DNA of 62,485 bases from a virus (taxonomy: Duplodnaviria; Caudoviricetes): positions 1 to 62,485 of IMG/VR virus record IMGVR_UViG_3300047157_000104; one strand, given 5' to 3'. Position numbers and translations under genes: made by a program. Shown in pieces: positions 43,863-60,325 of this stretch; within the stretch, counting starts at the first letter, position 1; each line of letters starts with the position of its first letter. The notes below the pieces were generated by a model. That model did no database searches and had not been told where the DNA came from. It saw only the letters and a list, made by a program, of their open reading frames with translations.

Positions 43863-43903
43863 AATTTACAATACAAATACGAACACTATAAGATAATAAT
43901 AAC

Positions 43904-44703: not shown

Positions 44704-44710
44704 TAATAAC

Positions 44711-45289: not shown

Positions 45290-45466
45290 GGGCATAAATG
45301 GATTTTAAATAGCGATTAAAGGCGTAATCCTGACGAGGTGTAATAAGCGGCTCGATGAAGGTTTACTTATCCGTCATAGTGATGACACCCGACCAGGAGG
45401 CAATGAAGCTATGTAGGTAAGTAATAAAGCTATGGTAGGCAGGTTCGATTCCTGCCATGTCCACCA
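45290..45466 (+). ncRNA. Short tmRNA/tRNA-Ala-like structured RNA (177 nt)
   Basis: 5' GGGCATA pairs with 3' CATGTCC-A-CCA (G3:U70, A73, mismatch at pair 7); T-arm GCAGG-TTCGATT-CCTGC; unpaired TGGATT D-loop mimic; ATAGC/GCTAT helix. Confidence 0.6.
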
Positions 45467-45523
45467 TTTACAATATAAATACGATGACAGTAGGATATTA
45501 AGTATAAAATTAAATAAAAATAT

Positions 45524-45787
45524 ATGAAAAGAATTACATTATTACACAGGCTAAAGCCAGAAGTTAAAGCAGCATTAGAAAAAAACAAACTAGATTACGA
45601 TTTCTCTATCGACCTTATCTACAAAGAGTTAGATGAAGTTGTAGTGTACCAAGATCTTAAAATGTCTACTATATACTCTATATACTTATTTAGTAGCATA
45701 GATATGTATGAAGCTGATGTGTATGACATCAGGTGGGGCGGTAATTTATTCTTAGAAGATAACGATTTAACAATAGAAACATTATGA
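45524..45787 (+). CDS. Early hypothetical protein
   Basis: 87-aa ORF after motif copy 7. Confidence 0.55.
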   Translation: MKRITLLHRLKPEVKAALEKNKLDYDFSIDLIYKELDEVVVYQDLKMSTIYSIYLFSSIDMYEADVYDIRWGGNLFLEDNDLTIETL

Positions 45788-46014
45788 GCAAAACAAAAGA
45801 ATTACCAGAGTGGTTTGATGGTATCAAATACTCTGAAGGCGAAACGATCACTAACCCGTTTTCAGGCGATAGCTATGACTGTAGCGCAGATGAAGCAGCT
45901 ATGTACGACCTAATTATGGGTGCAAACATGACTAAAAACTGGACAATAGTACAAAAAGGTTGTGACTGGTTTAGAAAAGCAAACCCTGAAGCATATATGG
46001 TGCTACTAGATTAA
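45784..46014 (+). CDS. Conserved phage hypothetical protein
   Basis: 76 aa (NPFSG...WFRKANPEAYMVLLD). Confidence 0.6.
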   Translation: MSKTKELPEWFDGIKYSEGETITNPFSGDSYDCSADEAAMYDLIMGANMTKNWTIVQKGCDWFRKANPEAYMVLLD

Positions 46015-46053
46015 TTTACAAATACAATACGAAACAAGTAAGATAATAATAAT

Positions 46054-46260
46054 ATGAATAAATTAACTGGATTTGAAAGGTTCTGCATAAGTTCTGCATT
46101 AGATATGTGGATCAAAGAACAAGAACAACACATCGTAAAAGCTGAAGCAGCTGGTAAACGAACAATAATAGCACAAGGCTATTGGAAAATGGTCGGTGAA
46201 GACCTAGAGCGTAAAATAACTAAATTAACATATAAAAAACACTTAGAAGATGTCAGATAA
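46054..46260 (+). CDS. Early hypothetical protein
   Basis: 68-aa ORF after motif copy 8. Confidence 0.55.
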   Translation: MNKLTGFERFCISSALDMWIKEQEQHIVKAEAAGKRTIIAQGYWKMVGEDLERKITKLTYKKHLEDVR

Positions 46261-46714
46261 AATTATAATAGAAGAAGTATTATGGGAAAAGCTTGAAGAA
46301 AAAGGTATTAAGCAACCATACGACACAGATCATGAAGAACAATTAGAAAAAGTATTAGATCATTGGGATGCTAGCATAACGGGCGACTGGGATGACAGCT
46401 GCAATAGATGGTTTTATATGGAATCAACAGCCGACAGCTATGAATTATACGTAGCTACATATGGTAAACCTAATGATATTAGTATAGGTGAAAATGTATA
46501 CTACTACGAAAACGGTTGGCTAGAAGAGCTACCTAACTGCATAAAAGACGGTGCTAATATATTTTTCTCAGAGCTAGAAACTGGTAACTACGAGTTTATA
46601 GATGCTATTAACGAAACGTATGAGCATTACTTCGAAGACAAAGTAGAAGAAATGCAAGATGAACTACTAGATCAAGGTTGGATACTTCAAAACGACATGG
46701 TGATCGATGCCTAA
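46250..46714 (+). CDS. Highly acidic hypothetical protein
   Basis: 154 aa, very D/E-rich with few basic residues. Confidence 0.6.
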   Translation: MSDKIIIEEVLWEKLEEKGIKQPYDTDHEEQLEKVLDHWDASITGDWDDSCNRWFYMESTADSYELYVATYGKPNDISIGENVYYYENGWLEELPNCIKDGANIFFSELETGNYEFIDAINETYEHYFEDKVEEMQDELLDQGWILQNDMVIDA

Positions 46715-47117
46715 TATTAAAGAACTTGACATAGTGTATATGAACATAGCTGGTGAAATTAGCCAGCTAAGTAAATGCAAAAGAAAGAAGGTCGGTGCTA
46801 TTATAGTTAAAGATAACAATATATTATCCTTTGGTTATAACGGTACGCCTTCTGGCTTCTGCAACACTTGCGAGGAAGACGACAGGACAAAATGGTCTGT
46901 ACTACACGCAGAGTCTAACGCTATAGTTAAAGTAGCTAAATCTACCAACAGTTCAAGTGGATCTACGCTGTACTGTACGTTGTCTCCCTGTAGAGATTGC
47001 AGTAAGTTGATAATACAAGCAGGTATAATTAAGGTAGTATACAAAGAAGTTTATGAAGGATCAACCGAAGGGCTTGATCTTATGGAAGAATCAGGAATAA
47101 AAATAATAAAAATATAA
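46707..47117 (+). CDS. dCMP deaminase (ComEB family)
   Basis: KVGAIIV, GYNGTPSG, HAESNA, PCRDC zinc motifs. Confidence 0.93.
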   Translation: MPNIKELDIVYMNIAGEISQLSKCKRKKVGAIIVKDNNILSFGYNGTPSGFCNTCEEDDRTKWSVLHAESNAIVKVAKSTNSSSGSTLYCTLSPCRDCSKLIIQAGIIKVVYKEVYEGSTEGLDLMEESGIKIIKI

Positions 47118-47581
47118 TGGGTACAAGAAGTTTAACAAGAATAATACCAAGACAAGAAGGTTTGTCTTACAGTGAAGGTCATACTAGAGCTGAGTTAGCG
47201 CTAGTAAACATATATCAACAGTACGATGGTTATCCAGAGTATATGGCTGTTGAGTATGCAGAGTGGTTGAAAGATATAAAGATCATTAATGGCTTAGGCG
47301 GTAACAAAAATCTTAATGAGATAGCTAATGGAGCAGGTTGCTTTGCAGCTCAGTTCATAGCTAAATTCAAAGATCGAGCTGGTCAAATGTATCTACAAGC
47401 AATAGACAACGAGATCGGTTGGGCTGAGTATATATATACTTTATACCCTAAAGCAGATCACGACACTTATATGTCTATATATAAAGTTTCTACTAGAACT
47501 GTTATATTTGTAGGTAAGCCAGAAAAAGCTCTACAACGGTACGATGAAAATTACAAAACAAATACGAAACAAGAAGGATAA
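47117..47581 (+). CDS. Conserved phage protein (MGTRS...YDGYP type), function unknown
   Basis: 154-aa ORF; its 3' end runs through motif copy 9. Confidence 0.65.
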   Translation: MGTRSLTRIIPRQEGLSYSEGHTRAELALVNIYQQYDGYPEYMAVEYAEWLKDIKIINGLGGNKNLNEIANGAGCFAAQFIAKFKDRAGQMYLQAIDNEIGWAEYIYTLYPKADHDTYMSIYKVSTRTVIFVGKPEKALQRYDENYKTNTKQEG

Positions 47582-47601
47582 TAATATAAAAAATATACAA
47601 A

Positions 47602-48438
47602 ATGAAAAAAGCCATGTTAGCACACAAGTTCGATCAATCACGTATCGACTTCAAAAGACCAATTTACATTCAAGCAAAGCTTGACGGCGTTCGCTGCTTA
47701 TTCACGAAAGACGGTGCATTCTCACGCAACGGCAAGCAGTTCATGAACGTACGTCACATTGAAATGGCACTCAAGCCTTTCTTTGCTGAACAACCAGATG
47801 TAGTACTCGATGGCGAGCTTTACAATCACAAGCTAAAGCGCGACTTCGAAAAGATCATATCACTAGTACGTAAGCAAAAGCCTACAGATGAAGACAGGCT
47901 CGATGCTCAGCATCTAGTACAGTTTCACGTATATGATTACTTCGATGGTGTGATGTATGACAACTATCAAGCGCGTATGCAGTTACTTGTAAACGCAGGT
48001 TTCTACGATGCACAGATCAAGCACGTTCCTGCATTACTAGTTGATAGCTACAATTACGCTAGAGTTCAGCACGAAGAGTTTTTATCACTCGGTTACGAAG
48101 GCTCAATTATAAGAAATGGCGATGGTATATACAAGCACGGTAGATCTTACGATCTAATGAAGTTCAAAGACTTCAGCGACACCGAAGCTACTATCATCGA
48201 TTATGTTACTGGTAAAGGTAAACGGACTGGCACGCTTGGCAAGTTCATTATGCAAGATGACGACGGTGTAGTGTTCGGTTGTCCTCCGGGCAAGGGCTAC
48301 TCGTACAAGGATCTTAAAACAATGCTCAAGAACGTAGATTCTTTTATTGGCAAGCGCGCTACCTTTACTTATTTTCAAAGAACTAAAGCTAACAGCTACA
48401 GACACCCACTATTTAAATGTATTAGAAATTATGAATAA
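47602..48438 (+). CDS. lig: ATP-dependent DNA ligase
   Basis: KLDGVR, LDGEL, FHVYD, EGSIIR, LMKFK, RHPLF. Confidence 0.93.
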   Translation: MKKAMLAHKFDQSRIDFKRPIYIQAKLDGVRCLFTKDGAFSRNGKQFMNVRHIEMALKPFFAEQPDVVLDGELYNHKLKRDFEKIISLVRKQKPTDEDRLDAQHLVQFHVYDYFDGVMYDNYQARMQLLVNAGFYDAQIKHVPALLVDSYNYARVQHEEFLSLGYEGSIIRNGDGIYKHGRSYDLMKFKDFSDTEATIIDYVTGKGKRTGTLGKFIMQDDDGVVFGCPPGKGYSYKDLKTMLKNVDSFIGKRATFTYFQRTKANSYRHPLFKCIRNYE

Positions 48439-48610
48439 TATAACAGATTACAGAGCAGTTGGCCTTGCTGAAGGATTTGAAGAAGGCACTGAAGAAGAAA
48501 TAATTGAAGCTTGGCAACATCTACATGATACTGGCTTAGCTTACACACTACAAGGCTGGTTCGGAAGAGCAGCATCAAACTTAATAGAACAAGGAATTAT
48601 AAATGAATAA
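48431..48610 (+). CDS. Small conserved phage protein
   Basis: MNNITDY...AWQHLHDTGLAYTLQGWFGRAA; ATG overlaps the ligase end. Confidence 0.55.
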   Translation: MNNITDYRAVGLAEGFEEGTEEEIIEAWQHLHDTGLAYTLQGWFGRAASNLIEQGIINE

Positions 48611-49115
48611 ATTATTAATAGCAACTATAGCAGTGAGCTTAGCGATGCCAAAAAGCAACGTGAGTAATGCTATACACAAGTCCGCTCCGGCAGACGAGCA
48701 AGTAAAAGTAACGATCGAGCCATCATGGGAAGATTTAATCGATGCGATAATCTACGTAGAAAGTAGAGGTAACGACTCTGCTATTGGCGATCGAGGTAAA
48801 GCTGTAGGCTGTTTACAAATACAACCTATATGCGTAAGAGAAGTTAATAGAATACTGCGTAAGCATAAGTCAAACGTAAGATACTCATTACAAGATCGTT
48901 ACAGTAGAGAAAGATCCATACAAATGTTTAACATTGTTGCAGAGCAGTATGCATGTTGTGAGTATGTTACATTTATGGAGTATGCAGAGATCGTATCTAG
49001 AAGATGGAATGGCGGTCCTCGCGGAGATAAAAAGAAAGCAACAATTAAATATTGGTACAAAGTTAAACCACATTTACAAAACAAATACGAAGAACATAAG
49101 ATAACAAACACATGA
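48603..49115 (+). CDS. Lysozyme-like/lytic transglycosylase with N-terminal signal sequence
   Basis: AIIYVESRG...GCLQI...WNGGP; hydrophobic N-terminus. Confidence 0.75.
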   Translation: MNKLLIATIAVSLAMPKSNVSNAIHKSAPADEQVKVTIEPSWEDLIDAIIYVESRGNDSAIGDRGKAVGCLQIQPICVREVNRILRKHKSNVRYSLQDRYSRERSIQMFNIVAEQYACCEYVTFMEYAEIVSRRWNGGPRGDKKKATIKYWYKVKPHLQNKYEEHKITNT

Positions 49116-49591
49116 ACATATTTTATTTAGACGCAGATCCAGATACGGCTGCTAGGTTACAATACAATAAACACGTTGTAAAAATGGTTCTTGAGTCAGC
49201 TCAAATGCTATGCTCGGCGCATCATTTTCATGGCAATGGTGACAACGTTCCATACAAAGTAAGCCACATTAACCATCCAAGCACCATCTGGACTCGTTCT
49301 AATACTAAGCATTACAATTGGTTATACCAACATATGATGTCTTTAGGAGATGAATATACGTTCAGATATGGCAAAACACATTTGACAATTACTAAATGCA
49401 GAGATGCTCTTAAATGGCCTCCTATGGGCATGACTACGTCAGATTTTAAGCAACCTCCACAAGCAATGCCAGATGAATACAAAAGCGCATGTAGTATAAA
49501 GGCCTACTGGAGATACTATATTGCTGAGAAACACACAGTAGCAAACAAAAATGAGAAAATTTATGAAGGAGATTATAATAAAATTATTTAA
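49112..49591 (+). CDS. Pyrimidine-dimer DNA glycosylase-like protein (T4 endonuclease V superfamily)
   Basis: MNIFYLD...KHVVKMVLESAQML...HINHPSTIW...PPQAMPD. Confidence 0.7.
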   Translation: MNIFYLDADPDTAARLQYNKHVVKMVLESAQMLCSAHHFHGNGDNVPYKVSHINHPSTIWTRSNTKHYNWLYQHMMSLGDEYTFRYGKTHLTITKCRDALKWPPMGMTTSDFKQPPQAMPDEYKSACSIKAYWRYYIAEKHTVANKNEKIYEGDYNKII

Positions 49592-49718
49592 AAGAATAAG
49601 TAATTTTTTTAATGGATTAGTTGCCGCATTAGAAGATGCCGCATATGTAAATGAAGTTAAAAAAGTAACTAAAACAAAGAAAAAGAAAACAAAAAAATAA
49701 AGTAAATATAACATGGCT

Positions 49719-49763
49719 ATGACAATAGCCTATAAGGATTAATAAGTAACTAGCTAATGTCAC
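49719..49763. promoter_or_regulatory. 45-bp imperfect palindromic site B overlapping the ATG of the HTH gene
   Basis: ATGACAATAGCCT...AGCTAATGTCAC; inverted homologue of 41268..41312. Confidence 0.7.
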
Positions 49764-50374
49764 ATGATAGAAATATAAAATGGCTGCATGATAAACGTGT
49801 TATTACACGGTGTTGGCCATGGGAGGATTTACCTAGCAACGAGACTAATCTGTACATGTATTATCAAGAAGGTACATTTCAATGTTATACATTGTTTGCA
49901 AGTAAAGCTAAAATTACTACATACAAATCTTTAAAATGGCATTTTTTAGTTTTAATGTTTTTAAACGAAGACGAAACAGCAGAGTTTATGGAATCTATAT
50001 TTAGATTTATAGCTGATAAAGAAAATGGTTTTGTAACTTTTTTTATAAAACAAACAGTATTAAATAGCATGATAGAAAATGTACTTATGTCACATGGTAA
50101 CCCACCTGTAAATAAAATGCGTAAAGTTATATTTAAACCTGCGGCTTGGCATCTAACATTAAGTGAAAAGCTTAGTATTGTTGGCAAACTTATAGGTAGA
50201 AATAAATTAAACAAAGAAATGCTTTATCAAAGCATGTTAGATATAAACGACGAAGGACAAAGCATAACAACTAAAAAACTAGCAAACCTGCTAAATGTAA
50301 CACAGAGAACAATATATCGCCACATGTGCGATACGCTAAGAACAGAAAAACAAATATTAAATGAAGAGCTATAA
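49757..50374 (+). CDS. DNA-binding protein with C-terminal HTH
   Basis: ITTKKLANLLNVTQRTIYRHM. Confidence 0.7.
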   Translation: MSHDRNIKWLHDKRVITRCWPWEDLPSNETNLYMYYQEGTFQCYTLFASKAKITTYKSLKWHFLVLMFLNEDETAEFMESIFRFIADKENGFVTFFIKQTVLNSMIENVLMSHGNPPVNKMRKVIFKPAAWHLTLSEKLSIVGKLIGRNKLNKEMLYQSMLDINDEGQSITTKKLANLLNVTQRTIYRHMCDTLRTEKQILNEEL

Positions 50375-51116
50375 CGTAAGTAATTACATAAAATATAAAA
50401 CCGATCTTAACAGATCAATGCCTGACGAAGAAAAAGACTATGCTACTCTCACTAGAGACGAACTTATAGTTAGGTTTCTACCTTTAGTAGAGAACTTAGC
50501 ACGTAAATTTTCTACGTCTCAACAAGCATCTGGTGTATTAAGCATCAATGATCTTATACAAGAAGGATCTGTAGGCTTAATAGCTGCGGTTGATAGAATC
50601 GACTGGGTAAAGCTATGCGAATCAGATGACATAGAAAAAACTATAAAGTCTTTTTTAAGCAAAAGAATAAAGGGTGCAATACGAAGAGCTGTCGATATAA
50701 ACAGAGGAAACATACGTATACCTGAGCACAAGCTTAATGAGATAAGAAAAGACTTTGGTAAAAACAGACAAATGGTTGAAATGTTTTTTAACAGTATATT
50801 TTTAAGTATTGATGCAAAGCCTAATCAAGATGAGAATATGGCATATCAAATTGCAGATACATCAGAGCCATACAATAAAGAATTACTTAATTTGTATTTA
50901 AAAGGCTTACTCAAGAAACATCTCAACGACAAAGAATACAACGTACTTAGGTTAAGCTACGGTTTAGATTGTGACAAGCATAGCGCAAAACAAATAGCAG
51001 AACAGTTAGATATAAAAGGTACGTCAGCTTATGTTAGAGTTTCACAACTAAAAAAGCAAGCCGTAGAAAAACTTATTGATAACGTAGATCACTCTCAAGT
51101 GCTTGATTATCTTTGA
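50361..51116 (+). CDS. Phage RNA polymerase sigma factor (sigma70 family)
   Basis: Region 2: LPLVENLARKF...DLIQEGSVGLIAAVDR...IRIP; region 4: VLRLSYGL...KQIAEQL...RVSQLKKQAVEKL. Confidence 0.88.
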   Translation: MKSYNVSNYIKYKTDLNRSMPDEEKDYATLTRDELIVRFLPLVENLARKFSTSQQASGVLSINDLIQEGSVGLIAAVDRIDWVKLCESDDIEKTIKSFLSKRIKGAIRRAVDINRGNIRIPEHKLNEIRKDFGKNRQMVEMFFNSIFLSIDAKPNQDENMAYQIADTSEPYNKELLNLYLKGLLKKHLNDKEYNVLRLSYGLDCDKHSAKQIAEQLDIKGTSAYVRVSQLKKQAVEKLIDNVDHSQVLDYL

Positions 51117-51175
51117 GTTAAACGTTAAAAACTAAAATAAATGTGTAATTATAATAATATCAAACCAACATACCT

Positions 51176-51712
51176 ATGACGTTAAACGACAAATTAACAG
51201 AAATCCAAACTAGATTTAAATCAAAAAAATCTAGGTTCAACTCATTCGGCAAATACCACTTTCGCAGTGCCGAAGACATTCTCGAAGCAACAAAACCCTT
51301 TTTAAAGGAGCTAGGCGTAACAGTTACAATTAATGAAGAATTAATAGCTGATAGCCCTATGCCTGTAATAAAGACTACAGCATCAGTAAACGACGGCAAA
51401 AGTGCTATACACGCAGCTGCCATTGTAGGTGTTGATCTTAATCAAAAAGGTATGCAAACTCCTCAACAGTTTGGATCTGCCTCGAGTTATGCTAAAAAAT
51501 ATGCGTTAGGTAACTTATTTTTAATTGATGACACTCAAGACAGTGACGCTGCCAATACACACGGCAAAGGCTCTGCAAGTACGCTAACGTCTGTAAAAGA
51601 TCCTGCGTTTGCAAAAGCTAAAGCTTATGTTAAAAACGGCGGCAAGCTTGATGCTATCAAGGCAAAATACAAATTAAGTGCTGAAGTTGAGAAAGCACTA
51701 ACAACATTATAA
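51176..51712 (+). CDS. ERF-family single-strand annealing protein
   Basis: FNSFGKYHFRSAEDILEA...QQFGSASSYAKKYALGNLFLIDD..DSD. Confidence 0.85.
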   Translation: MTLNDKLTEIQTRFKSKKSRFNSFGKYHFRSAEDILEATKPFLKELGVTVTINEELIADSPMPVIKTTASVNDGKSAIHAAAIVGVDLNQKGMQTPQQFGSASSYAKKYALGNLFLIDDTQDSDAANTHGKGSASTLTSVKDPAFAKAKAYVKNGGKLDAIKAKYKLSAEVEKALTTL

Positions 51713-52444
51713 ATGGATAAAAAACAAATAATAGAAAAGCTACGTGACGATGAAAGCTATTACGGTAAGTTTGGTAAACAGTACTTAAGTAATAGCGACA
51801 TTAGCACATTATTAAAAAATCCTTTAGCGCTAGGTACACCTAGTAAACCTTCAGCTGCCTTTTTAGTAGGTGGTTACTTTCATACTGCAATACTTGAGCC
51901 ACATAAGCTTAAGAAGTATAAAGTTATCGAAGCGTCTACTAGGAATACTAAAGCGTATAAAGAGATGTCAGGTGGTGAGTTATGTTTGTTGCAACAAGAG
52001 GTTGACAATATAGAGTTATTGACAGATAAGATCATGTCTAACGATATATGCAGAGATCTTATACGCAAAGGAGAAATAACTTACGAAGAACCTGGCATTA
52101 CGGAGATAAATGATCATATGTGGAAAGGTAAGGCTGATATAGTTAATCACAGCGAAAAGCTAGTGGTTGATCTTAAAACCACCAACGACATAAGCAAGTT
52201 TAGATCTTCAGCTTGGAAATACAATTATGATAGCCAAGCATATATTTATAGCAAGATATTTGGTTATGAGTTAATATTTATAGCAATAGATAAAAACACA
52301 CACCAAATAGGTTTATTTGACTGCTCTACTGAATTTATAGAGCGTGGCATTGAAAAGGTTAGCAAAGCCACAGAAGCATATGAGTTGTTCTACAATACAG
52401 AAAACTTTGACGCTGAACAATACTTTATTAACAAAACTTTATAG
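51713..52444 (+). CDS. PD-(D/E)XK exonuclease (RecE/ExoVIII-like)
   Basis: LSNSDI, GGYFHTAILEP, KGKAD, VDLKTT, YDSQAYIY. Confidence 0.8.
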   Translation: MDKKQIIEKLRDDESYYGKFGKQYLSNSDISTLLKNPLALGTPSKPSAAFLVGGYFHTAILEPHKLKKYKVIEASTRNTKAYKEMSGGELCLLQQEVDNIELLTDKIMSNDICRDLIRKGEITYEEPGITEINDHMWKGKADIVNHSEKLVVDLKTTNDISKFRSSAWKYNYDSQAYIYSKIFGYELIFIAIDKNTHQIGLFDCSTEFIERGIEKVSKATEAYELFYNTENFDAEQYFINKTL

Positions 52445-52502
52445 TTTTACAAAATAAATACGATAACCTCAAGATAATAATTAAAAATAAAAATTAAAAT
52501 TT

Positions 52503-52679
52503 ATGGCAAGAACCAGAAAAAACCCAACAAGACTATGCACAGTAACTGGCGTGAAGACCAGCGAAAGCAATTTTTACAAAAACCAAAACCACGTTAAAGC
52601 TGTGGATAACATCAGGCGTAATACCGGTGCTACAAAAGATCAGCTTAGACGTATGTTTAATCAATTAAAAACTTATTAA
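52503..52679 (+). CDS. Small basic hypothetical protein (58 aa, not in ORF track)
   Basis: MARTRKNPTRLCTVTG...NQLKTY; follows motif copy 11. Confidence 0.5.
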   Translation: MARTRKNPTRLCTVTGVKTSESNFYKNQNHVKAVDNIRRNTGATKDQLRRMFNQLKTY

Positions 52680-52681
52680 TT

Positions 52682-52993
52682 ATGGCAAGTATTATAGCAA
52701 CAAGCATTGATCTTACTAAGATACCCAAAGATAAGATCATAAACGGAAAAAAGGGTAAGTATATACCAATAACTATAACGTTGAACGACGAAGTAGATCA
52801 GTTTGGTAATCAAGGTCCAGTGTCTGTTCAGCAGACTAAAGAAGAACGAGAAGCAAAAACTGAAAAGGTTTACCTAGGCAATGTTAAAGTTGTCTGGTCT
52901 AACGGAGATAACGTAGCACCAGCGCCTAGAGACGGTATGGCAGCTCAAGGTAACGTAGTTACTAAACAAGTAGAAGAAGACCTACCATTCTAG
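52682..52993 (+). CDS. ssb: Single-stranded DNA-binding protein
   Basis: IDLTKIPK...DQFGN...YLGN; C-terminal EEDLPF tail. Confidence 0.75.
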   Translation: MASIIATSIDLTKIPKDKIINGKKGKYIPITITLNDEVDQFGNQGPVSVQQTKEEREAKTEKVYLGNVKVVWSNGDNVAPAPRDGMAAQGNVVTKQVEEDLPF

Positions 52994-52994
52994 C

Positions 52995-53087
52995 ATGGAG
53001 CTATGTGAAATGTGCGGGCAAGAAATGTCACGGGAGGAACATGCCTTCTGTGACATATGCCCAGATTGTAGAGAAATAGAATACTAA
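52995..53087 (+). CDS. Tiny Cys-rich zinc-finger peptide (30 aa)
   Basis: MELCEMCGQEMSREEHAFCDICPDCREIEY. Confidence 0.45.
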   Translation: MELCEMCGQEMSREEHAFCDICPDCREIEY

Positions 53088-53104
53088 CAATTTAATTAAA
53101 TAAA

Positions 53105-54808
53105 ATGCAAACAACAGAGATCAACGGGTTTACTATTGACCAGTTCAATCAGTACAGTCTAGAAAGCGGCAAGACTCAGGGCGTATGTCCTCTTTGCTCC
53201 CATACTAGAAAACCTGAGAATAAGAAAGCAAAATGTGCTTCATATGATTGGGATCGTGGTCTCGGCACTTGCCACAATTGTAACACATCTTTTCAGTTAC
53301 ACACGTATCAAAGAAAAGGTGCTAGTGAGCGTGTTTATGTTAGACCTGAGGTTACTAAGTATTTACCAGTTAAAGACAAAGTAACTGAATGGTTTGAAAC
53401 AAGAGGTATATCTCAAAAAACCTTAGATGATGTACAAGTCGGACAAGGTTCTGAGTATATGCCACAAACTGGTAAAACAGAAAACACGATACAGTTTAAT
53501 TATATCATGGGTGACCAATTAATTAATGTTAAATATAGAGATGGTCGAAAGAATTTTAAACTGTATAAAGGTGCTGAAAAAGTATTTTACAATATCAATA
53601 GCATAATAGGTTATGATAGTTGTGTTATAACAGAGGGCGAAATGGATGTGTTAGCATTTCATGAAGCTGGTGTTAAAAACGTAGTGTCAGTACCGAATGG
53701 TGCAACGCTAACTAATAATAACCTAGATTACTTAGATAATTGTATAGATTACTTTGAAGATAAAGAAAGAATACTATTAGCAATAGATAAAGACGAACCA
53801 GGCCAAATGCTTCAAGCTGAGCTTGTGCGTAGGCTAGGTGCTGAAACTTGTTTCATAGTAGACTTCGACGATTGCAAAGATGCTAATGAATATTTACTAA
53901 AGCACGGTAAAGATAAGCTAGCTGAATCAATAACAAAGGCCAGGCCTTATCCTCTTGAAAACGTAACTACGTTTAAAGATATAGAGAATGAGATAACAGA
54001 CTTTGTTAAAAATGGTTTTAAACCAGGCTTCCAAGTTGGTCTACCTAATTTTGACGAAATATTTTCTACGTATACTAAACAGTTTATAACTGTAACAGGT
54101 ATACCTAGTTCAGGTAAGTCAGATTTTGTAGATCAAATGGTAGTAGGTTATAACCAACAATATGGTTGGAAGACTGCTTTTGCAAGTCCTGAAAATCAAC
54201 CAACATACCTACACGCACATAAGCTTATGCGTAAAGTGTGGGGCGACATGCCCAATGTAGGAGATATTGGTGGTGCTAAATGGAACGAAGTTGCAGAGCA
54301 CGTCAACGATCATTTCTATTTCATAGACATGGATAAATACGATCTTGATTCTGTATTACGAAAAGGTGCAGAGCTTGTAAAAAGAAAAGGTATCAAATGC
54401 TTAGTTATCGATCCTTATAATAAGGTTAGAGATATAAATGCAAAGACTGATGATGTAAACCGTTATACAATGGATTACTTAATGAAGATCGAAACATTTG
54501 CTAAGAAGTATGATTGCTTAGTTTTTATAGTTGCGCACCCTACTAAAATGATGAGGGGTCAAGATGGTAAAATCCAAGAACCTACAATGTACAATATAAA
54601 AGGCGGTGGTGAATGGTATGATGCCAGTTACCACGGCCTTCTTGTACACAGAGATTACGAAGCTGGTACCACTAAAGTCAAAGTGCTTAAAGTTAAGTTT
54701 CAAAATCTTGGTGAGAACGGAGCTGAGGCACATTTTACTTGGGACAGAGCTTCAGGTAGATTTGTACCTGAAATGTCTATAAAACAAGATGATTTACCTT
54801 GGGAGTAA
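53105..54808 (+). CDS. T7 gp4/Twinkle-like DNA primase-helicase
   Basis: Zn finger CPLC...CHNC, TOPRIM ITEGEMD and KDANE, Walker A TGIPSSGKS, VIDPY, VAHP. Confidence 0.93.
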   Translation: MQTTEINGFTIDQFNQYSLESGKTQGVCPLCSHTRKPENKKAKCASYDWDRGLGTCHNCNTSFQLHTYQRKGASERVYVRPEVTKYLPVKDKVTEWFETRGISQKTLDDVQVGQGSEYMPQTGKTENTIQFNYIMGDQLINVKYRDGRKNFKLYKGAEKVFYNINSIIGYDSCVITEGEMDVLAFHEAGVKNVVSVPNGATLTNNNLDYLDNCIDYFEDKERILLAIDKDEPGQMLQAELVRRLGAETCFIVDFDDCKDANEYLLKHGKDKLAESITKARPYPLENVTTFKDIENEITDFVKNGFKPGFQVGLPNFDEIFSTYTKQFITVTGIPSSGKSDFVDQMVVGYNQQYGWKTAFASPENQPTYLHAHKLMRKVWGDMPNVGDIGGAKWNEVAEHVNDHFYFIDMDKYDLDSVLRKGAELVKRKGIKCLVIDPYNKVRDINAKTDDVNRYTMDYLMKIETFAKKYDCLVFIVAHPTKMMRGQDGKIQEPTMYNIKGGGEWYDASYHGLLVHRDYEAGTTKVKVLKVKFQNLGENGAEAHFTWDRASGRFVPEMSIKQDDLPWE

Positions 54809-55065
54809 AAAAGAAAGTTGAAAATTATTCAATGACAGAAAATGAAATGCAAGCTTTTAAATGGTGTGTAAGAAACGGTATATGTATAAAACCTAGAGAA
54901 GTAGCTTGGAGAACTAGAAAATACTGTGTCGATATAGAAACAGGTAGGTATCCAAATAGAAAACTAATTGCTACTACACCAGAACACTATTCTTACTTAG
55001 CCGCACAAAAAAAAGCTGCTGAATATAGAACATATTATTACAAAAAGAATGCGGACAAAGTTTAA
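54799..55065 (+). CDS. Hypothetical protein
   Basis: 88-aa ORF coupled to both neighbours. Confidence 0.55.
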   Translation: MGVKKKVENYSMTENEMQAFKWCVRNGICIKPREVAWRTRKYCVDIETGRYPNRKLIATTPEHYSYLAAQKKAAEYRTYYYKKNADKV

Positions 55066-55690
55066 AAATGCAAGCGAAGCCTTCGATTACTTCTACATAA
55101 AAATAAAAGACAAAGGTGTTGATTTTGATAGCACTAAAGCATTATTTAATGTAGGGTTTTATATAGCTGACCCTGTTAATAACAAAATAAAATCTGGCTT
55201 CAGAGGCTGGAGTAAAGAGTATGCCAATGCCGAATGGCAATGGTACTTATCTGGTGATCCAAATATAAAAAAGCTAGGATCATTATACGGTAAGATTCCA
55301 AGTATATGGAAAAAAATGGCTGACAGACACGGCAATGTTAATAGCAACTACGGCTATCAATGGAAACGTAATAGCCAATTACAATATGTAATAAACAAAC
55401 TAAAGAACGATCATAATACTAGACACGCAGCAATAAGCATATATGATGGAAAAGAATGGGAACATTATAAAAATGATACTCCTTGCACATATGCAGTTCA
55501 GTTTAGTATAATAGATGGCAAATTAAATATGTCAGTATATATGAGATCTAATGATCTATGGTACGGCTTTTGCAATGATCAATACCAATTTAGTATGCTA
55601 CAGAAAACGGTAGCAGGAGAATTAAATATACCGGTCGGTTGGTATTACCACCACGCACATAACTTACACTTATATAACGATAAAACTTAA
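55049..55690 (+). CDS. Thymidylate synthase superfamily enzyme, dCMP hydroxymethylase/methylase-like
   Basis: NSNYG, catalytic TPCT, MRSNDLWYGFCND, NLHLY. Confidence 0.8.
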   Translation: MRTKFKNASEAFDYFYIKIKDKGVDFDSTKALFNVGFYIADPVNNKIKSGFRGWSKEYANAEWQWYLSGDPNIKKLGSLYGKIPSIWKKMADRHGNVNSNYGYQWKRNSQLQYVINKLKNDHNTRHAAISIYDGKEWEHYKNDTPCTYAVQFSIIDGKLNMSVYMRSNDLWYGFCNDQYQFSMLQKTVAGELNIPVGWYYHHAHNLHLYNDKT

Positions 55691-56493
55691 TGTACTATTT
55701 ATACCACATTCCTGGTAAAAAGATTGGCGTAACACGTGATCTTGATACCAGAGTTACCCTTGTGCAAGGCTACAAGGAGGGAGAGTACGAAGTTCTAGAC
55801 CAGTCAGAAGATATAGATTACATATCAGACTTGGAGTTAGAACTTCAACAGTCTTATGGCTATCGCAAAGACATACAACCTTATAAACAACTATTTAATA
55901 AAATGAAGATAAACGCAACAGAACAAACCTCAACGTTCCCCGTGCCTATAAATAAATTAAAAGGTAGGCTAATGGATAATATAGGTAAGAATTGGCAGAC
56001 AGAGTTTGGCCAGTTTGAGATAAACGAACAAACAATACCATGGATAGTAGATAACGCAAAGACGTCCATGTTTAATACAGAAAGATGCTACATATATAAT
56101 AAAGCATATTGGAATATGTTTCAGAACAAAGACCCTAAATCAGGATGGGTTCCTAGCTCAAGCAATGGTACTTACGTAGTACAAGAGCCTGACAAAGACA
56201 AATATTACTTTGGTTTAATAAGACAATGGGCGCAAGACAAAGGCATATACGATAAAGGCGACACAAAAACGCAGTACATAAAACTTGCTGAAGAGTTTGG
56301 TGAGCTTGGTAAAGCATTGCTAAATGATGATCAACCAGAAGTAATAGATGCTGTTGGCGATATGGTAGTTGTATTGACTAACCTAGCACATCAAAGAGGA
56401 GTTACTATAGAGTCATGCATTAAGTCAGCATACGGCGTGATAAGTAAACGAACAGGTAAAATGATTAACGGAACATTTGTAAAAGATAACTAA
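55690..56493 (+). CDS. Fusion protein with C-terminal MazG-like NTP pyrophosphohydrolase (N-terminus loosely GIY-YIG-like)
   Basis: KLAEEFGEL...IDAVGDMVVVL...AYGVISKRTG; N-terminal YYLYH...KIGVT. Confidence 0.75.
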   Translation: MYYLYHIPGKKIGVTRDLDTRVTLVQGYKEGEYEVLDQSEDIDYISDLELELQQSYGYRKDIQPYKQLFNKMKINATEQTSTFPVPINKLKGRLMDNIGKNWQTEFGQFEINEQTIPWIVDNAKTSMFNTERCYIYNKAYWNMFQNKDPKSGWVPSSSNGTYVVQEPDKDKYYFGLIRQWAQDKGIYDKGDTKTQYIKLAEEFGELGKALLNDDQPEVIDAVGDMVVVLTNLAHQRGVTIESCIKSAYGVISKRTGKMINGTFVKDN

Positions 56494-56494
56494 T

Positions 56495-56773
56495 ATGAAA
56501 GATTATAGAATAAAAACTGAAGACCCTATCGTACAGAAAATAATTAAAAAGATCGACGAACGCAGTGAGTTTGGTATGAAAAAGTATGGCCAATCTATGA
56601 TGCAAGAAGTCGTAAACAGAGAAAAAGATCTTGGTGCATTTATTGTCGACGTACAAGAAGAATTAATGGATGCAATATTATATTTAGAGTCAGCAAGGCA
56701 TTGTCTGCAAGATGAGATCGAAGATGCTATGCTATCAAGACTTACTGAAGATAAAAATGAAGAAGTCTTATAA
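56495..56773 (+). CDS. Small all-alpha NTP-pyrophosphatase-like protein
   Basis: RSEFGMKKYG...QEELMDAILYL (EE..D metal-binding pattern). Confidence 0.5.
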   Translation: MKDYRIKTEDPIVQKIIKKIDERSEFGMKKYGQSMMQEVVNREKDLGAFIVDVQEELMDAILYLESARHCLQDEIEDAMLSRLTEDKNEEVL

Positions 56774-57212
56774 AAGAAAAAGTAAAGGTCCTGTCAGAGC
56801 TAAAAAGACTAGCTATGACGGGATAACCTTTGCATCTGGTTTAGAGAAGTATATGTATAAAGCTTTAAAAGAAGCTAACATACACGCTCTATATGAGGGA
56901 GAAACGTTTGAACTTGTTGAAGCTTTTGATTTTCCTTTTGAATGCTACGAAAGGTGTGGCAATGGAAAAGGAGAATATAAAAACAGAGGCAATAAAAAGG
57001 TTTTAAACATTAAGTATACTCCAGATTTTATAGGTAAAGGCTTTATAATAGAATGCAAAGGTAGAGCAAATGAATCTTTTCCACTTAGATGGAAAATGTT
57101 TAAGAGCTTAATAGCAAGCAGCAAGATAGGACCTTGCACACTATATAAACCTCAAAATCAAAAAGAATGCGACGAAACAATAAACTTAATACTGAGCAGC
57201 AAAAACAGCTAG
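56757..57212 (+). CDS. T7 endonuclease I-like Holliday junction resolvase
   Basis: FASGLE...YTPDF...IIECKG; ATG at 56757. Confidence 0.8.
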   Translation: MKKSYKRKSKGPVRAKKTSYDGITFASGLEKYMYKALKEANIHALYEGETFELVEAFDFPFECYERCGNGKGEYKNRGNKKVLNIKYTPDFIGKGFIIECKGRANESFPLRWKMFKSLIASSKIGPCTLYKPQNQKECDETINLILSSKNS

Positions 57213-57491
57213 CTAGAGAGAAATATGCAGAGCGTCAGTTTGATAGATGGGTTAAGTGGAAATGGGATACTCACGGCTGCATTAGATACAAAGAATTAAT
57301 ACAACAATTAGAAAAATACAATTTATGACCAAAGAAAAAGAAAAAAAAGCATGGGCGCTGAGCGTTGGCTTGTACCCAGGGATATTAATAGGATTTAGAT
57401 CTTATGAAGATGATGATAAAACTACTCATGTAGCTTATATACCATTTGTCGATCTTGCTTTAGAAGTGTTTAAAAATACAGAAAAATAATA

Positions 57492-57626
57492 ATGGCAAAG
57501 CTTTTAATATCTTCTTATTTAAAGAAGAATAAAACAAAAAGACCAGGCGTACACGCTAAAAGTAAAACGTCAAGAAATAAAAACAGTAAAAATTACGTTA
57601 AGAAATATATAGGACAAGGTAGATGA
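57492..57626 (+). CDS. Small basic protein ending in YIGQGR (44 aa)
   Basis: Overlaps the nrdB start (ATGA); two further short ORFs at 57167..57328 and 57325..57489. Confidence 0.5.
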   Translation: MAKLLISSYLKKNKTKRPGVHAKSKTSRNKNSKNYVKKYIGQGR

Positions 57627-58582
57627 GTTTATTTAAAGAAAGAATAGCATACAAACCTTTTGAGTACCCTGAGTATTATACTGAGGGTTGGTTGAAACAA
57701 GCTCAAGCATTTTGGTTACATACAGAAATACCAATGTCAGGTGACGTAAAAGACTGGAACGAAAAGCTAACTGATGAAGAGAAAAACCTAGTAGGAAATA
57801 TCCTGCTAGGCTTTGCTCAGACCGAGTGTGCTGTTTCTGATTATTGGACGCAGAAAGTTGTTGGTTGGTTTCCTAAACATGAAATACAACAAATGGCTAT
57901 GATGTTTGGTTCTCAAGAAACAATACACGCTGTAGCTTATAGCTATCTAAATGAAACTCTAGGACTTGAAGACTTTGAAGCATTTTTGCATGAGTCAGCA
58001 ACAGCTGAACGATTTGATAACTTAGTAGCATACGAAGGAAATGATCCTGTAGGCATAGGTAAGTCGTTAGCTATATTTAGCGCATTTGCTGAAGGTGTTT
58101 CATTGTACTCTGCTTTCGCAGTGCTATACAGCTTTCAACTTCGCAACCTGCTAAAAGGTATTGGCCAGCAGATGAAATGGTCTGTAAGAGATGAAAGTTT
58201 ACATTCGCGCATGGGTTGTAAGTTATTTAATCAAATGTGCGATGAAATACCTACTCTTAGAGATGAGTGCCAAGATGATATACATAAGGCGGCGGAAACA
58301 ATGGTTGAGCTTGAAGAGAAATATATAGATAAAATGTTTGAGATGGGCGACATTGAGAACTTAAAGTCATACGATCTAAAGCAGTTTGTTAGAAAAAGAG
58401 CTAACGAAAAACTACAAGAACTAGGTTACGTGGGATTATTTACTTATTCGCAAGAAGCTGCAGACAACCTTGATTGGTTCTACCACTTAACAGGCGGTGT
58501 CACTCATACAGACTTTTTTGCTATGAGACCTACAGATTATTCTAAAGCAAACGAAGGTGAAGATTTTGAAGATATATGGTAA
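57623..58582 (+). CDS. nrdB: Class I ribonucleotide reductase beta subunit
   Basis: AFWLHTE, ETIHAVAY, EGVSLYSAF, RDESLH, HTDFFA. Confidence 0.95.
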   Translation: MSLFKERIAYKPFEYPEYYTEGWLKQAQAFWLHTEIPMSGDVKDWNEKLTDEEKNLVGNILLGFAQTECAVSDYWTQKVVGWFPKHEIQQMAMMFGSQETIHAVAYSYLNETLGLEDFEAFLHESATAERFDNLVAYEGNDPVGIGKSLAIFSAFAEGVSLYSAFAVLYSFQLRNLLKGIGQQMKWSVRDESLHSRMGCKLFNQMCDEIPTLRDECQDDIHKAAETMVELEEKYIDKMFEMGDIENLKSYDLKQFVRKRANEKLQELGYVGLFTYSQEAADNLDWFYHLTGGVTHTDFFAMRPTDYSKANEGEDFEDIW

Positions 58583-58588
58583 TTAATT

Positions 58589-60286
58589 ATGTGGAATAAA
58601 GAATGGAAAAAAGGCGTTGATTATCCTGATTGGGGTGATAACGAAGTATATAAGAAAACAATAGGTGGTCAATACTTGCTACCTGGTGAAAGCCCAGCAG
58701 ATGCTTACATGAGAGTTTGTAAGACTGTTGGGATGCGTTTAGGACGTCCAGAACTCACCGAAACATTTTATGAGTATATATGGAAAGGTTGGCTTTGTCT
58801 AGCGTCTCCAGTGTTGTCTAACACGGGCACAGAACGTGGTCTACCGATTAGTTGTTTTGGCATTGATGTTGGTGATAGTATATATGATATAGGAAATAAA
58901 AATTTAGAGATGATGCTACTCGCGAAACACGGCGGCGGAGTTGGTATCGGAGTTAATATGATTAGACCTGCCGGAAGTAAAATAAAACAAAATGGAACAT
59001 CAGACGGAGTTGTCCCTTTCTGCAAGATCTATGATTCTACAATCCTTGCTACAAACCAAGGAGCAGTTCGAAGAGGAGCTGCTTCAGTCAACATTAACAT
59101 TGACCACGCAGATTTTGAAGAGTGGCTTGAGATACGAGAACCTAAAGGGGATGTTAACAGACAAAGCCTTAACTTACATCAATGCGCAGTTGTTGGTGAC
59201 AAGTTTATGCGAAAGCTTGAGCTCGGAGATCCAGAAGCTAGAAATAAGTGGAGTAAACTTATTAGAAAACGAAAAGCAACTGGCGAGCCGTATATCCTCT
59301 TTAAAGGAAATACAAACAAAGCAAATCCAGAAGCATATAAAGAAAACGGATTAAAAGTTCATATGACTAATATATGTAGCGAGATTACGTTGCATACAGA
59401 CGAGTCACATAGCTTCGTGTGCTGTTTATCTTCTTTAAACTTAGCTAAGTATAACGAATGGAAAGATACTAATATAGTATACGATGCTATATGGTTTTTA
59501 GATGGAGTACTTGAAGAGTTTATACAGAAAGCAAAAGGTAAGATCGGTTTTGAAAATGCAGTTAGATCTGCTGAAAAAGGTAGAGCATTAGGATTAGGCG
59601 TTTTAGGTTGGCATACTTATTTACAAGAGAATAACATACCATTTGAAAGCTTGCCTGCACAGTTTGAGACTCGTAGAATATTTTCAACTATGATGGTTGA
59701 GTCTACTAGAGCTAGTATGGATTTAGCAGAGCTATACGGTGAACCACTATGGTGCTCTGGCACTGGACTACGTAATACGCATTTACGCGCTGTAGCTCCA
59801 ACAGTTAGCAACTCTAAGCTATCAGGTAACGTATCACCTGGTATTGAGCCTTGGGCTGCTAATGTATTTACAGAGCAGTCTGCTAAAGGTACTTTCATTA
59901 GAAAGAATCCAACATTAGAAAAGTTATTACGTAAAAAAGGTAAGAATAATAAAGATGTTTGGAATAAGATACTAGAAGATGGTGGTTCTGTACAAGATTT
60001 AGATTTCTTGACAGATGAAGAAAAAGATGTTTATAAAACATTTAAAGAGATCAACCAACTAGAACTAGTAAAACAAGCTGGAATAAGGCAGCAGTTTATA
60101 GATCAAAGTGTTAGTTTGAATTTAGCTTTTCCAAAAGAGGCTACACCAAAATGGATCAACAAGGTACATATGGAAGCTTGGAAACGTGGAATAAAAACTC
60201 TGTATTATATGCGCACTGAATCTGTGCTGCGTGGTGATATAGCTCAGAAAGCACTAAGTGAAGACTGTATGGCTTGCGATGGCTAA
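58589..60286 (+). CDS. nrdA: Class I ribonucleotide reductase alpha subunit (short, no ATP cone)
   Basis: ISCF, GGGVG, TNICSEI, VCCLSSLN, APTVSNS, KTLYY, C-terminal CMACDG. Confidence 0.95.
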   Translation: MWNKEWKKGVDYPDWGDNEVYKKTIGGQYLLPGESPADAYMRVCKTVGMRLGRPELTETFYEYIWKGWLCLASPVLSNTGTERGLPISCFGIDVGDSIYDIGNKNLEMMLLAKHGGGVGIGVNMIRPAGSKIKQNGTSDGVVPFCKIYDSTILATNQGAVRRGAASVNINIDHADFEEWLEIREPKGDVNRQSLNLHQCAVVGDKFMRKLELGDPEARNKWSKLIRKRKATGEPYILFKGNTNKANPEAYKENGLKVHMTNICSEITLHTDESHSFVCCLSSLNLAKYNEWKDTNIVYDAIWFLDGVLEEFIQKAKGKIGFENAVRSAEKGRALGLGVLGWHTYLQENNIPFESLPAQFETRRIFSTMMVESTRASMDLAELYGEPLWCSGTGLRNTHLRAVAPTVSNSKLSGNVSPGIEPWAANVFTEQSAKGTFIRKNPTLEKLLRKKGKNNKDVWNKILEDGGSVQDLDFLTDEEKDVYKTFKEINQLELVKQAGIRQQFIDQSVSLNLAFPKEATPKWINKVHMEAWKRGIKTLYYMRTESVLRGDIAQKALSEDCMACDG

Positions 60287-60289
60287 AAA

Positions 60290-60325
60290 AGAAAAGAGGG
60301 TAGCTTTTAGTTACCCTCTTTTTTT
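60290..60325. terminator. Bidirectional rho-independent terminator at the convergence of the two transcription blocks
   Basis: AAGAGGGTAGC-TTTTA-GTTACCCTCTT flanked by A- and T-tracts. Confidence 0.8.

Follow-up and report, generated by a model that had tools for sequence, protein, structure and literature searches.

The three-gene module at 55049 to 56773

The IMG/VR virus record IMGVR_UViG_3300047157_000104 (62,485 bp, in the following called the window; CheckV completeness 97%, GC content approximately 35%) contains at 55049 to 56773 three adjacent genes, which code for a short protein of the thymidylate synthase (TS) fold, a three-part protein ending in a MazG domain (ORF2, for open reading frame) and a small conserved protein (ORF3). 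An original prediction for this locus described a probable cytosine-modification module. Judged from its residues and its predicted structure, the TS-fold protein is very probably a hydroxymethylase specific for deoxycytidine monophosphate (dCMP), which would supply the phage with 5-hydroxymethyl-dCMP (5hm-dCMP). The stop codon TAA of the TS-fold gene overlaps the ATG of ORF2 (ttaatg) and a single nucleotide lies between ORF2 and ORF3; the three genes are translationally coupled.

Table 1. Features of the module, followed by other genes and regions of the window (RNR, ribonucleotide reductase; NTP, nucleoside triphosphate)
Feature	Position	Strand	Evidence or content
Short-form TS-fold enzyme, predicted dCMP C5-hydroxymethylase (5hm-dCMP synthase), 213 aa	55049..55690	+	PF00303, fold, signature residues
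ORF2, MazG-bearing gene, 267 aa	55690-56493	+	three parts in the predicted structure
ORF2 domain 1, aa 1-60, T5orf172/GIY-YIG-like (weak)	55690..55869	+	predicted beta-beta-alpha-beta-alpha
ORF2 domain 2, aa 75-146, alpha/beta, no family match	55912..56127	+	conserved; model pLDDT ~73-88
ORF2 domain 3, aa 169-267 and stop, MazG/PRA-PH all-alpha NTP pyrophosphohydrolase, candidate dCTPase	56194..56493	+	PF01503
ORF3, 92 aa, small conserved helical protein of no matched family	56495..56773	+	21 invariant positions in 26 sequences
dCMP deaminase	46707..47117	+	PF00383 7.4e-24, PF14437 7.7e-19, phrog_174 4e-51
ATP-dependent DNA ligase	47602..48438	+	PF01068 1.1e-16, PF14743 3.5e-08
Class I RNR small subunit	57623-58582	+	phrog_86 3.1e-69
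Class I RNR large subunit	58589-60286	+	phrog_84 5.2e-155
Structural block	~1-41,000	-	terminase, portal, GroEL-like and GroES-like genes
Replication and nucleotide block	~42,000-60,300	+	deaminase, ligase, sigma factor, Erf, exonuclease, primase-helicase, three-gene module, DUF1064 nuclease-like gene, RNR

A first search returned 483 related viral stretches, and gene order was counted in 80 related viral loci. The MazG domain follows the TS gene in 78 of these loci, the two exceptions being cut by contig ends. The N-terminal domains 1 and 2 of ORF2 are present in 74 loci, and 70 loci have ORF3 as the next gene after ORF2. In six loci, whose backbone is unrelated, the TS gene is followed by a MazG protein of 97 aa alone, and the pair of TS and MazG is found on two phage backbones. 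On the second backbone (L026:5082-5975 and neighbours) a pyridoxal phosphate (PLP)-dependent enzyme (PF00291, 7.4e-11) and two family-less proteins of ~307 aa are encoded directly upstream of the TS gene; these upstream genes are candidates for a different cytosine hypermodification. The two nearest named relatives by terminase, the Flavobacterium Elemovirus phages (terminase identity 46%) and MW202828 (63%), are without PF00303, ORF2 and PF00383. This joint absence says little about linkage, because only the structural module is common to these phages and the window while the replication module is wholly different. Among cultured phages, no megablast match to the module region was found.

Residues, fold and phylogeny of the TS-fold protein

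The TS-fold protein matches PF00303 with an E-value of 1e-25 (90.8 bits, cut-off 24.3; profile positions 56-214 of 266). It is the sole TS-family gene of the genome, in which ThyX was not found either. The stretch RSNDLWYGFCND of the window aligns with RSCDVFLGLPFN of E. coli ThyA in a HMMER alignment to PDB sequences as well as in four MAFFT alignments with E. coli ThyA, T4 gp42, RB69 gp48, RB69 td, Xp12 and SPO1 gp29 as references, which gives R166, S167, D169 and Asp177. The earlier claim that an Asp occupies the position of ThyA Asn177 holds in each of these alignments. By coincidence, the numbering of the protein equals that of E. coli ThyA at D143, C146, T147, R166, S167, N168, D169, G173, D177, H207 and Y209.

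Asp177 is invariant in the 68 distinct sequences from the 80 loci. Together with D143, D169 and C146 it is also invariant in 84 aligned relatives, down to 31% identity, as are R166, S167, H207 and Y209. A scan of 1.84 billion proteins yielded 116 representatives, namely those of at least 190 aa among the 150 best; D177 is present in 116/116 of them, D143 in 114/116 and the full set of D143, T147, D169 and D177 in 103/116. Asp177 is not a chance match.

Published residue rules for this superfamily allow the type of reaction to be predicted. Exchange of Asn177 for Asp switches the substrate from dUMP (deoxyuridine monophosphate) to dCMP (PMC8670742; PMC13326640; PMC5175136), and Asp177 alone is sufficient to make a dCMP methylase of a TS (Liu and Santi, 1992; Hardy and Nalivaika, 1992, cited in PMC8670742). 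The signature of a hydroxymethylase consists of the motifs D-x-x-C and S-x-Y and the lack of a C-terminal tail, and the T4 variant D145N is inactive (Park et al., 2019, PMC6400193). The acidic residue (Asp or Glu) at the third position ahead of the catalytic Cys, where ThyA has Leu, activates together with Ser-x-Tyr the water that hydrates the exocyclic methylene (PMC6400193; PMC13326640), and L143D/E separates hydroxymethyl from methyl products (Lee et al., 2026, PMC13326640). The flavin-dependent 5-hydroxy-dCMP synthases are recognised by D169N (PMC13326640). Ser167 and Arg126 select deoxyribose, whereas the corresponding Ala and Lys of MilA, a CMP hydroxymethylase, favour ribose (PMC5175136).

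At positions 143, 169 and 177 our alignment has L, D and N in ThyA and RB69 td, D, D and N in the dUMP hydroxymethylase SPO1 gp29, N, D and D in Xp12, a phage with 5-methylcytosine (5mC), and E, N and D in RB69 gp48, a 5-hydroxycytosine (5hoC) synthase. T4 gp42 has D at all three positions, and so does the TS-fold protein of the window. The control enzymes agree with the published rules. Identity with T4 gp42 extends over E58, W80, S-x-Y94, R126, D143, C146, T147, R166, S167, N168, D169, D177, H207 and Y209; the motifs read NDTPC and NSNYG in the window and SDFMC and NSNYG in T4, and around position 169 both proteins have RSND while RB69 gp48 has RSQN. The catalytic Cys146 and the phosphate and sugar ligands R166, S167, R126, H207 and Y209 are all present, which includes the deoxyribose pair Ser167 and Arg126. 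The canonical ThyA features Asn177, Leu143, His147 and C-terminal folate lid are replaced by D177, D143, T147 and the absence of a lid. Likewise, the Asn169 of the 5-hydroxy-dCMP synthases is D169 here, and the Xp12-type features that we derived from our own comparison (a non-acidic residue 143, a ThyA-like C-terminus and a dihydrofolate reductase (DHFR) as partner) are not seen, the scans of the window giving no DHFR.

The protein stops four residues past the Tyr of the HLY motif, and approximately 50 C-terminal residues of ThyA are absent; therefore, it has no ThyA tail that would seal the folate site for hydride transfer. T4 dCMP hydroxymethylase is also without this tail. Among the relatives listed, the 120 closest have lengths of 212-240 aa, and TIGR03283, the model for methanogen short TS proteins, stops at the same point; thus, short forms ending here are not an artefact. 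A split gene, in which the C-terminus of the TS would lie within ORF2 behind an inserted endonuclease-like domain, was considered and rejected. Comparison of the ORF2 family with ThyA by hhalign gave a probability of 0.17% and an E-value of 0.36, with a single local match of 12 columns (ORF2 79-90 to ThyA 219-230). Furthermore, the six loci on the unrelated backbone have TS and then MazG alone, the short TS is a family trait, and the TS-fold protein by itself gives a complete model of high confidence.

The AlphaFold model of the TS-fold protein has a pLDDT of 97.6 and a pTM of 0.93. The best solved match in Foldseek is MilA, the CMP 5-hydroxymethylase of mildiomycin (PDB 5jnh, 5b6d), with a query-normalised TM-score (TMq) of 0.90-0.91 and a root mean square deviation (rmsd) of 1.8-1.9. 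Other matches are the flavin dCMP monooxygenase 9iqc (TMq 0.87, target-normalised TMt 0.80), T4 dCMP hydroxymethylase (TMq 0.78-0.79) and ThyA (TMq ~0.75-0.78), with E-values down to 1e-20 against TS-fold structures. MilA also gives the best sequence match to any solved protein (E 4.9e-18) and has Asp at 143 and 177. It differs by Ala176 and Lys133 (ribose) in place of Ser167 and Arg126 (deoxyribose) and by a helical C-terminal domain of ~100 aa that is absent in the TS-fold protein. The model is also matched (TMq 0.84) by BFVD A0A8S5MQL3, a viral protein of 408 aa named as having a CMP/dCMP deaminase domain, which is possibly a natural fusion of a TS-like protein and a deaminase.

A quick-search maximum-likelihood tree of 70 rows, in which the reference sequences sit on long branches, has ThyA and td as outgroup, and Xp12 branches next. 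T4 gp42, SPO1 gp29, RB69 gp48 and the TS-fold protein are held in one clade (98% SH-aLRT). Within it, the TS-fold protein belongs to a subclade of 20 rows (99%), mostly proteins of 205-240 aa including a 226-aa protein of Bacteroides phage BF503P2. In this tree, of the kind suggested along with the original prediction, the protein falls into the clade of T4 gp42, with Xp12 and ThyA outside, but into a separate subclade that holds no characterised enzyme. The TS-fold protein belongs to an abundant, so far uncharacterised short-form clade.

The T4 system (gp42, gp56, cd, gp1, alpha- and beta-glucosyltransferases) shares D-x-x-C, S-x-Y, RSND, Asp177 and the missing ThyA lid, an all-alpha NTP pyrophosphatase gene alongside, and a dCMP deaminase and a class I RNR in the genome. 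T4 gp56 is a member of the all-alpha NTP pyrophosphatase superfamily. The differences are an identity of 24-28%, a different subclade and a length of 246 aa in T4 versus 213 aa here; in the window, the MazG/PRA-PH domain is fused to two extra domains and has no detectable similarity to gp56, and td, DHFR, a deoxynucleoside monophosphate (dNMP) kinase, a glucosyltransferase and a DNA polymerase were not found in the genome. Xp12 has in common Asp177, a single TS-family gene and a dCMP deaminase in the genome. In contrast to the window, it has N143, P147, a full ThyA-like C-terminus (289 aa), a DHFR gene next door and a position outside the hydroxymethylase clade.

The nearest cultured relatives of the TS-fold protein are encoded by Bacteroides phages (BF503P1/P2/P4, BF486P2/P3, BF494P1), where they are annotated as deoxycytidylate 5-hydroxymethyltransferase; identity is 46-46.5% over residues 1-198. 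This homologue of 226 aa has the same signature and lies in the same clade (99% support). The Bacteroides phage cluster differs by a carbamoyltransferase, an AAA_28 P-loop protein, a dUTPase-like gene and a second D177 paralogue, and it has no MazG beside the short gene. In BF503P2 (L001), the region 651-6681 contains the carbamoyltransferase (PF16861 3.4e-34, PF02543), AAA_28, a 268-aa D177 homologue without E58 and W80, the dUTPase-like gene and the 226-aa short homologue; this cultured phage has two cytosine-type TS paralogues. A gene set of the BF503P2 type has been tied to 5-carbamoyloxymethylcytosine by MetaGPA (PMC8670742).

Partner genes, proposed pathway and competing explanations

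In the predicted structure of ORF2, a disordered linker precedes the MazG domain. This domain matches PF01503 with 26.3 bits (cut-off 21.3), and all 27 ORF2 members scanned have MazG and PRA-PH matches. In the metal motif EExxE...ExxD the residues E201, E202, E205, D220 and D224 are invariant, and E217 is found in at least 90% of the members. The domain has the four-helix fold and superimposes on 1vmg (VIA Z 9.7, rmsd 2.3 over 83 residues); further fold matches are the S-2L MazZ enzyme, HisE and, as one of many, DCTPP1 (Z 7.2-7.5). The domain might act on deoxycytidine triphosphate (dCTP), and we consider the chances for and against such a dCTPase to be evenly balanced. For domain 1, PF10544 was detected below threshold in 5/27 members (best E 0.002), and T5orf172 occurs in 11-48% of the members of the nearest atlas clusters, which is a lead only; hhalign found no match of domain 1 with T4 SegA. 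The fold searches with ORF2 were dominated by the MazG domain, so that domain 2 was barely probed.

ORF3 has no match in Pfam or NCBIfam and none in the atlas. Against the ORF2 family hhalign gave a probability of 1%, and a search of PDB sequences with the ORF3 profile returned nothing significant (best E 0.91; DCTPP1 E 1.3). Among longer proteins, P0274 and P0275 have an ORF3-like domain (63% and 98% identity to ORF3, respectively) that follows a MazG domain in the same reading frame; P0276 is a doubtful third case. Such domains are also fused to an Fpg/Nei DNA glycosylase, PurE, a methyltransferase-family protein and T5orf172-like regions (P0278, P0280, P0282, P0277, P0279); each fusion, those to MazG included, rests on one or few metagenomic sequences. 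ORF3 has the look of a small mobile domain that is found alongside enzymes acting on nucleotides and DNA. The fusions tie it to MazG but do not give its identity, and they alone keep alive the idea of ORF3 as a second MazG, which hhalign, Pfam, NCBIfam, the atlas and the PDB profile search do not support. Of the two NTP pyrophosphatase-like genes of the original prediction, the evidence supports one, ORF2, and there residues 169-267.

We propose that the three coupled genes form a reduced pathway of the T4 type that would make 5hm-dCMP before replication. The MazG domain of ORF2 would hydrolyse dCTP to dCMP and pyrophosphate, which would feed the hydroxymethylase and exclude plain dCTP from phage DNA. 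As suggested by residues and fold, the TS-fold enzyme would bind dCMP via Asp177 and Ser167/Arg126, Cys146 would attack C6, and the methylene group would come from methylenetetrahydrofolate. The exocyclic methylene would then be hydrated, because Asp143 would hold a water molecule and the protein is without the C-terminal lid that hydride transfer requires. The products would be 5hm-dCMP and tetrahydrofolate and therefore no DHFR would be needed; that no DHFR was found in the genome is consistent with a reaction returning tetrahydrofolate. In the third step, the weakest link, the host CMP/dCMP kinase and nucleoside diphosphate kinase would produce the triphosphate and the host replicase would incorporate it. 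Where present, the dCMP deaminase would send part of the dCMP to dUMP for the host ThyA, which would suit a genome of 35% GC. The class I RNR provides context as a supply of deoxynucleoside diphosphates upstream of the pathway. We would expect virion DNA to have 5-hydroxymethylcytosine (5hmC) in place of most of its cytosine and to be thereby protected against restriction; modified cytosine is a known escape from host restriction.

Such a T4-like pre-replicative 5hmC pathway with a hydroxymethylase and a putative dCTPase is probably the best explanation overall, and the sequence makes it reasonably likely that virion DNA contains substantial 5hmC. Of the earlier module proposal, cytosine specificity stands, and of the products named there 5hmC is favoured by D143, S-x-Y and D169; 5mC and a bypass to dTMP (deoxythymidine monophosphate) are disfavoured by the differences to Xp12 and by the optional nature of the deaminase.

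The deaminase that had been noted at 46707 is real (Table 1). PF00383 was detected in two of five TS-bearing relatives searched, that is in two of the four that are at least 90% complete, and the relatives without it keep TS and MazG. Because it is absent from two of four complete relatives, the deaminase appears to be an optional companion and not a fixed step of the pathway. In the six-locus group PF00383 was found in 0/5 records, which carries no weight as all of them are fragments that are 29-66% complete. A very acidic family-less protein of 154 aa (46250-46714, plus strand) is encoded just upstream of the deaminase and overlaps its start; it is present in 4/4 complete relatives with 30-36% identity, and from its composition we guess that it might be a DNA-mimic or anti-restriction protein. 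No family match was obtained for the conserved proteins at 44308, 46250 and 47117.

A published survey is in line with a cytosine-modifying function of the module. MetaGPA (Yang et al., eLife 2021, PMC8670742) selected phage DNA in which all cytosines were resistant to APOBEC3A. PF00303 was the domain most associated with modification, Asp177 and position 147 were the most discriminating residues, and on the modified contigs, which came from sewage and a coastal sample, PF00303 occurs together with PF01503, PF00383, PF14437 and ligase domains (PMC8670742). The window genome has PF00303 with Asp177, PF01503, PF00383, PF14437, PF01068 and PF14743, and its residue 147 is not His (Thr here); one of the three MetaGPA samples was coastal. 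A difference to the MetaGPA contigs is the carbamoyltransferase, which was not found in the window genome.

Several observations weigh against the proposed 5hmC pathway, the first of them being the enzymes that are missing. T4 requires its gene 1 kinase (gp1) for phosphorylation of hm-dCMP. Pfam, PHROG and NCBIfam scans of the coding-strand ORFs of the window gave no match to a dNMP kinase, a glycosyltransferase, a carbamoyltransferase, a DHFR or a DNA polymerase, and no other known 5hmC-decorating enzyme was found; these scans and the Walker-A scan bear out the original statement that neither a glycosyltransferase nor a dNMP kinase is seen. The only plausible P-loop found by the Walker-A scan of the genome lies in the primase-helicase, the other matches being internal to structural, Erf and amidase ORFs. 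The same scan of the four complete relatives revealed no evident kinase, only a PhoH-like protein in two and a 363-aa family-less ORF in G003. The PhoH-like gene (G001 31296-31979, and G002) matches PDB 3b85 with an E-value of 1.4e-43, and the window is without it. In the 5hoC system, the modified base is barely detectable in DNA when the cognate kinase is missing (Lee et al., 2026, PMC13326640). The missing phage kinase is the main evidence against full substitution and also the only part that is possibly new.

Further points against the pathway concern its enzymes. In the TS-fold protein ThyA R127 is replaced by His and R21 has no counterpart, and T4 gp42 lies in the sister group of its subclade. 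The ORF2 family has no link to T4 gp56 (hhalign probability 1.6%), and the closest MazG folds of solved structure have various NTPs as substrates. Restriction-site avoidance gave no signal either way, since palindrome statistics were without a clear pattern (CATG and AATT are mildly rarer than expected).

A variant of the preferred explanation, which does not exclude it, takes 5hmC as the first step only, with domains 1 and 2 of ORF2, ORF3 or other genes decorating the base after replication. The short-form relative in BF503P2 does cluster with the genes linked by MetaGPA to 5-carbamoyloxymethylcytosine (PMC8670742), the L026 group has the PLP-dependent enzyme just upstream of TS, and the 21 invariant positions of ORF3 look enzyme-like. 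However, no known hypermodifying-enzyme domain was found in the genome, ORF3 and the T5orf172-like domain are also fused to unrelated enzymes, and the six-locus group keeps TS and MazG only, so that we regard such a decoration as rather unlikely.

It is unlikely, in our estimate, that 5hm-dCMP is made but scarcely reaches the DNA for want of a phage kinase, in which case the module would reshape the pools (dCTP/dCMP to dUMP/dTMP) or lead to partial substitution. A dead-end nucleotide would be costly, TS and MazG are kept across two phage backbones, and dCMP is almost as good a substrate of bacterial CMP kinase as CMP itself (PMC5175136). In addition, MetaGPA selected only fully modified DNA and the domain combination was still enriched (PMC8670742). 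What speaks for this explanation is that neither a kinase nor an own DNA polymerase was found in the genome, that no kinase is evident in the four complete relatives by Walker-A scan, and that incorporation without kinase is at trace level in the 5hoC system (PMC13326640). Normal assembly from standard libraries (20 listed runs from 14 studies) fits as well, although any non-bulky DNA state permits that.

The 5mC, dTMP-bypass and 5hoC routes each disagree with the protein at a defining residue. A dCMP methylase, as assumed for Xp12, would produce 5-methyl-dCMP for 5mC DNA, or for deamination to dTMP as a bypass replacing ThyA. In its favour are the sole TS-family gene and the dCMP deaminase of a genome in which ThyX was not found, and the single D177 homologue of Xp12 adjoins a dCMP deaminase; Asp177 alone would suffice for such an activity (cited in PMC8670742). 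We nevertheless consider it quite improbable: D143 and S-x-Y form the hydroxymethylase signature, with T4 D145N inactive (PMC6400193), the tail that would seal the site for hydride transfer is absent, none of N143, full C-terminus and adjacent DHFR of Xp12 is found here, and Xp12 lies outside the 98% clade. The bypass is in addition hard to reconcile with the two complete relatives that keep TS and MazG without the deaminase. A flavin-dependent 5-hydroxy-dCMP synthase of the RB69 gp48 or DLP3 gp80 type, yielding 5hoC as acceptor for glycosylation, is very improbable, since despite a similar size (213 aa versus 234-238 aa), a fold close to the flavin monooxygenase 9iqc, and the shared Asp177 and acidic residue 143, the diagnostic D169N is absent, the folate-side residues E58 and W80 that RB69 gp48 lacks are kept, and glycosyltransferase and NDP-sugar genes were not found in the genome scans.

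The phage, its surroundings and implications

In its large terminase the phage has 46% identity with the Flavobacterium Elemovirus podophages, and this protein also matches phages of Cellulophaga, Tenacibaculum and Maribacter; the host belongs most likely to the Flavobacteriia. Among the matches listed, 20 runs belonging to 14 studies contain near-identical sequence, and all are seawater or viral metagenomes. This phage is therefore common in the sea, and the runs inform on its presence in such metagenomes and not on base modification. In the literature searched, we found no paper dealing with this lineage, nor with a short TS homologue of marine flavobacterial phages.

The structural block contains several large or unusual genes. 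A protein of 1223 aa (13173-16841, minus strand) has the Crassvirus muzzle C-terminal domain (PF25729, 2.8e-11). Beside it lies an ORF of 2022 aa (2230-8295, minus strand) without Pfam, PHROG or PDB sequence match, which in size and position presumably resembles the giant virion proteins of crAss-like phages. The GroEL-like chaperonin (39024-40613, minus strand; phrog_5725, 1.6e-141) and the GroES-like co-chaperonin (27868-28461, minus strand; phrog_13932, 5.1e-22) are also present in the Elemovirus-type relatives. In the replication block, a 159-aa protein (49112-49588, plus strand) matches the DNA binding protein family phrog_624 (2.8e-47) and is kept in 4/4 complete relatives; a weak match to the pyrimidine-dimer DNA glycosylase PF03013 (5.4e-4) is under the cut-off. 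The DUF1064/resolvase-like ORF at 56712-57212 (plus strand) overlaps as listed the end of ORF3 by 62 nt, and its true start may be downstream. No tRNA genes were found in the genome. Over the whole genome, GATC is in excess (231 observed versus 173 expected, ratio 1.33, z 4.4), and GGATCC is not observed at all (0 versus 6.8 expected).

It is already in print that a TS homologue with Asp177, when accompanied by PRA-PH and deaminase genes, is in principle a mark of cytosine-modified phage DNA (PMC8670742; PMC13326640). A wider and more doubtful reading is that abundant marine flavobacterial podophages replace cytosine with 5hmC or a derivative by a minimal operon of hydroxymethylase, MazG and ORF3, without a phage kinase, polymerase or glycosyltransferase. 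Either the host CMP kinase and Pol III would possibly handle the 5hm-dC nucleotides, or the N-terminal domains of ORF2 and/or ORF3 could possibly be a new 5hm-dCMP kinase or a modifier acting on DNA. If this reading is true, viral DNA in the ocean would commonly carry modified cytosine, and if host enzymes suffice, the rule of a dedicated kinase, which is based on T4, would be overturned.

If the 5hmC pathway operates as proposed, a widespread seawater phage would package 5hmC DNA by the smallest pathway yet seen, one hydroxymethylase and one pyrophosphatase, which would bear on the need for a phage-encoded dNMP kinase in cytosine replacement. It would also bear on how frequently marine viral DNA is modified and thus on restriction, CRISPR targeting, enzymatic library preparation and methylation calling in viromes. 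Thousands of metagenomic genes annotated as thymidylate synthase would then, by their residues, be dCMP hydroxymethylases.

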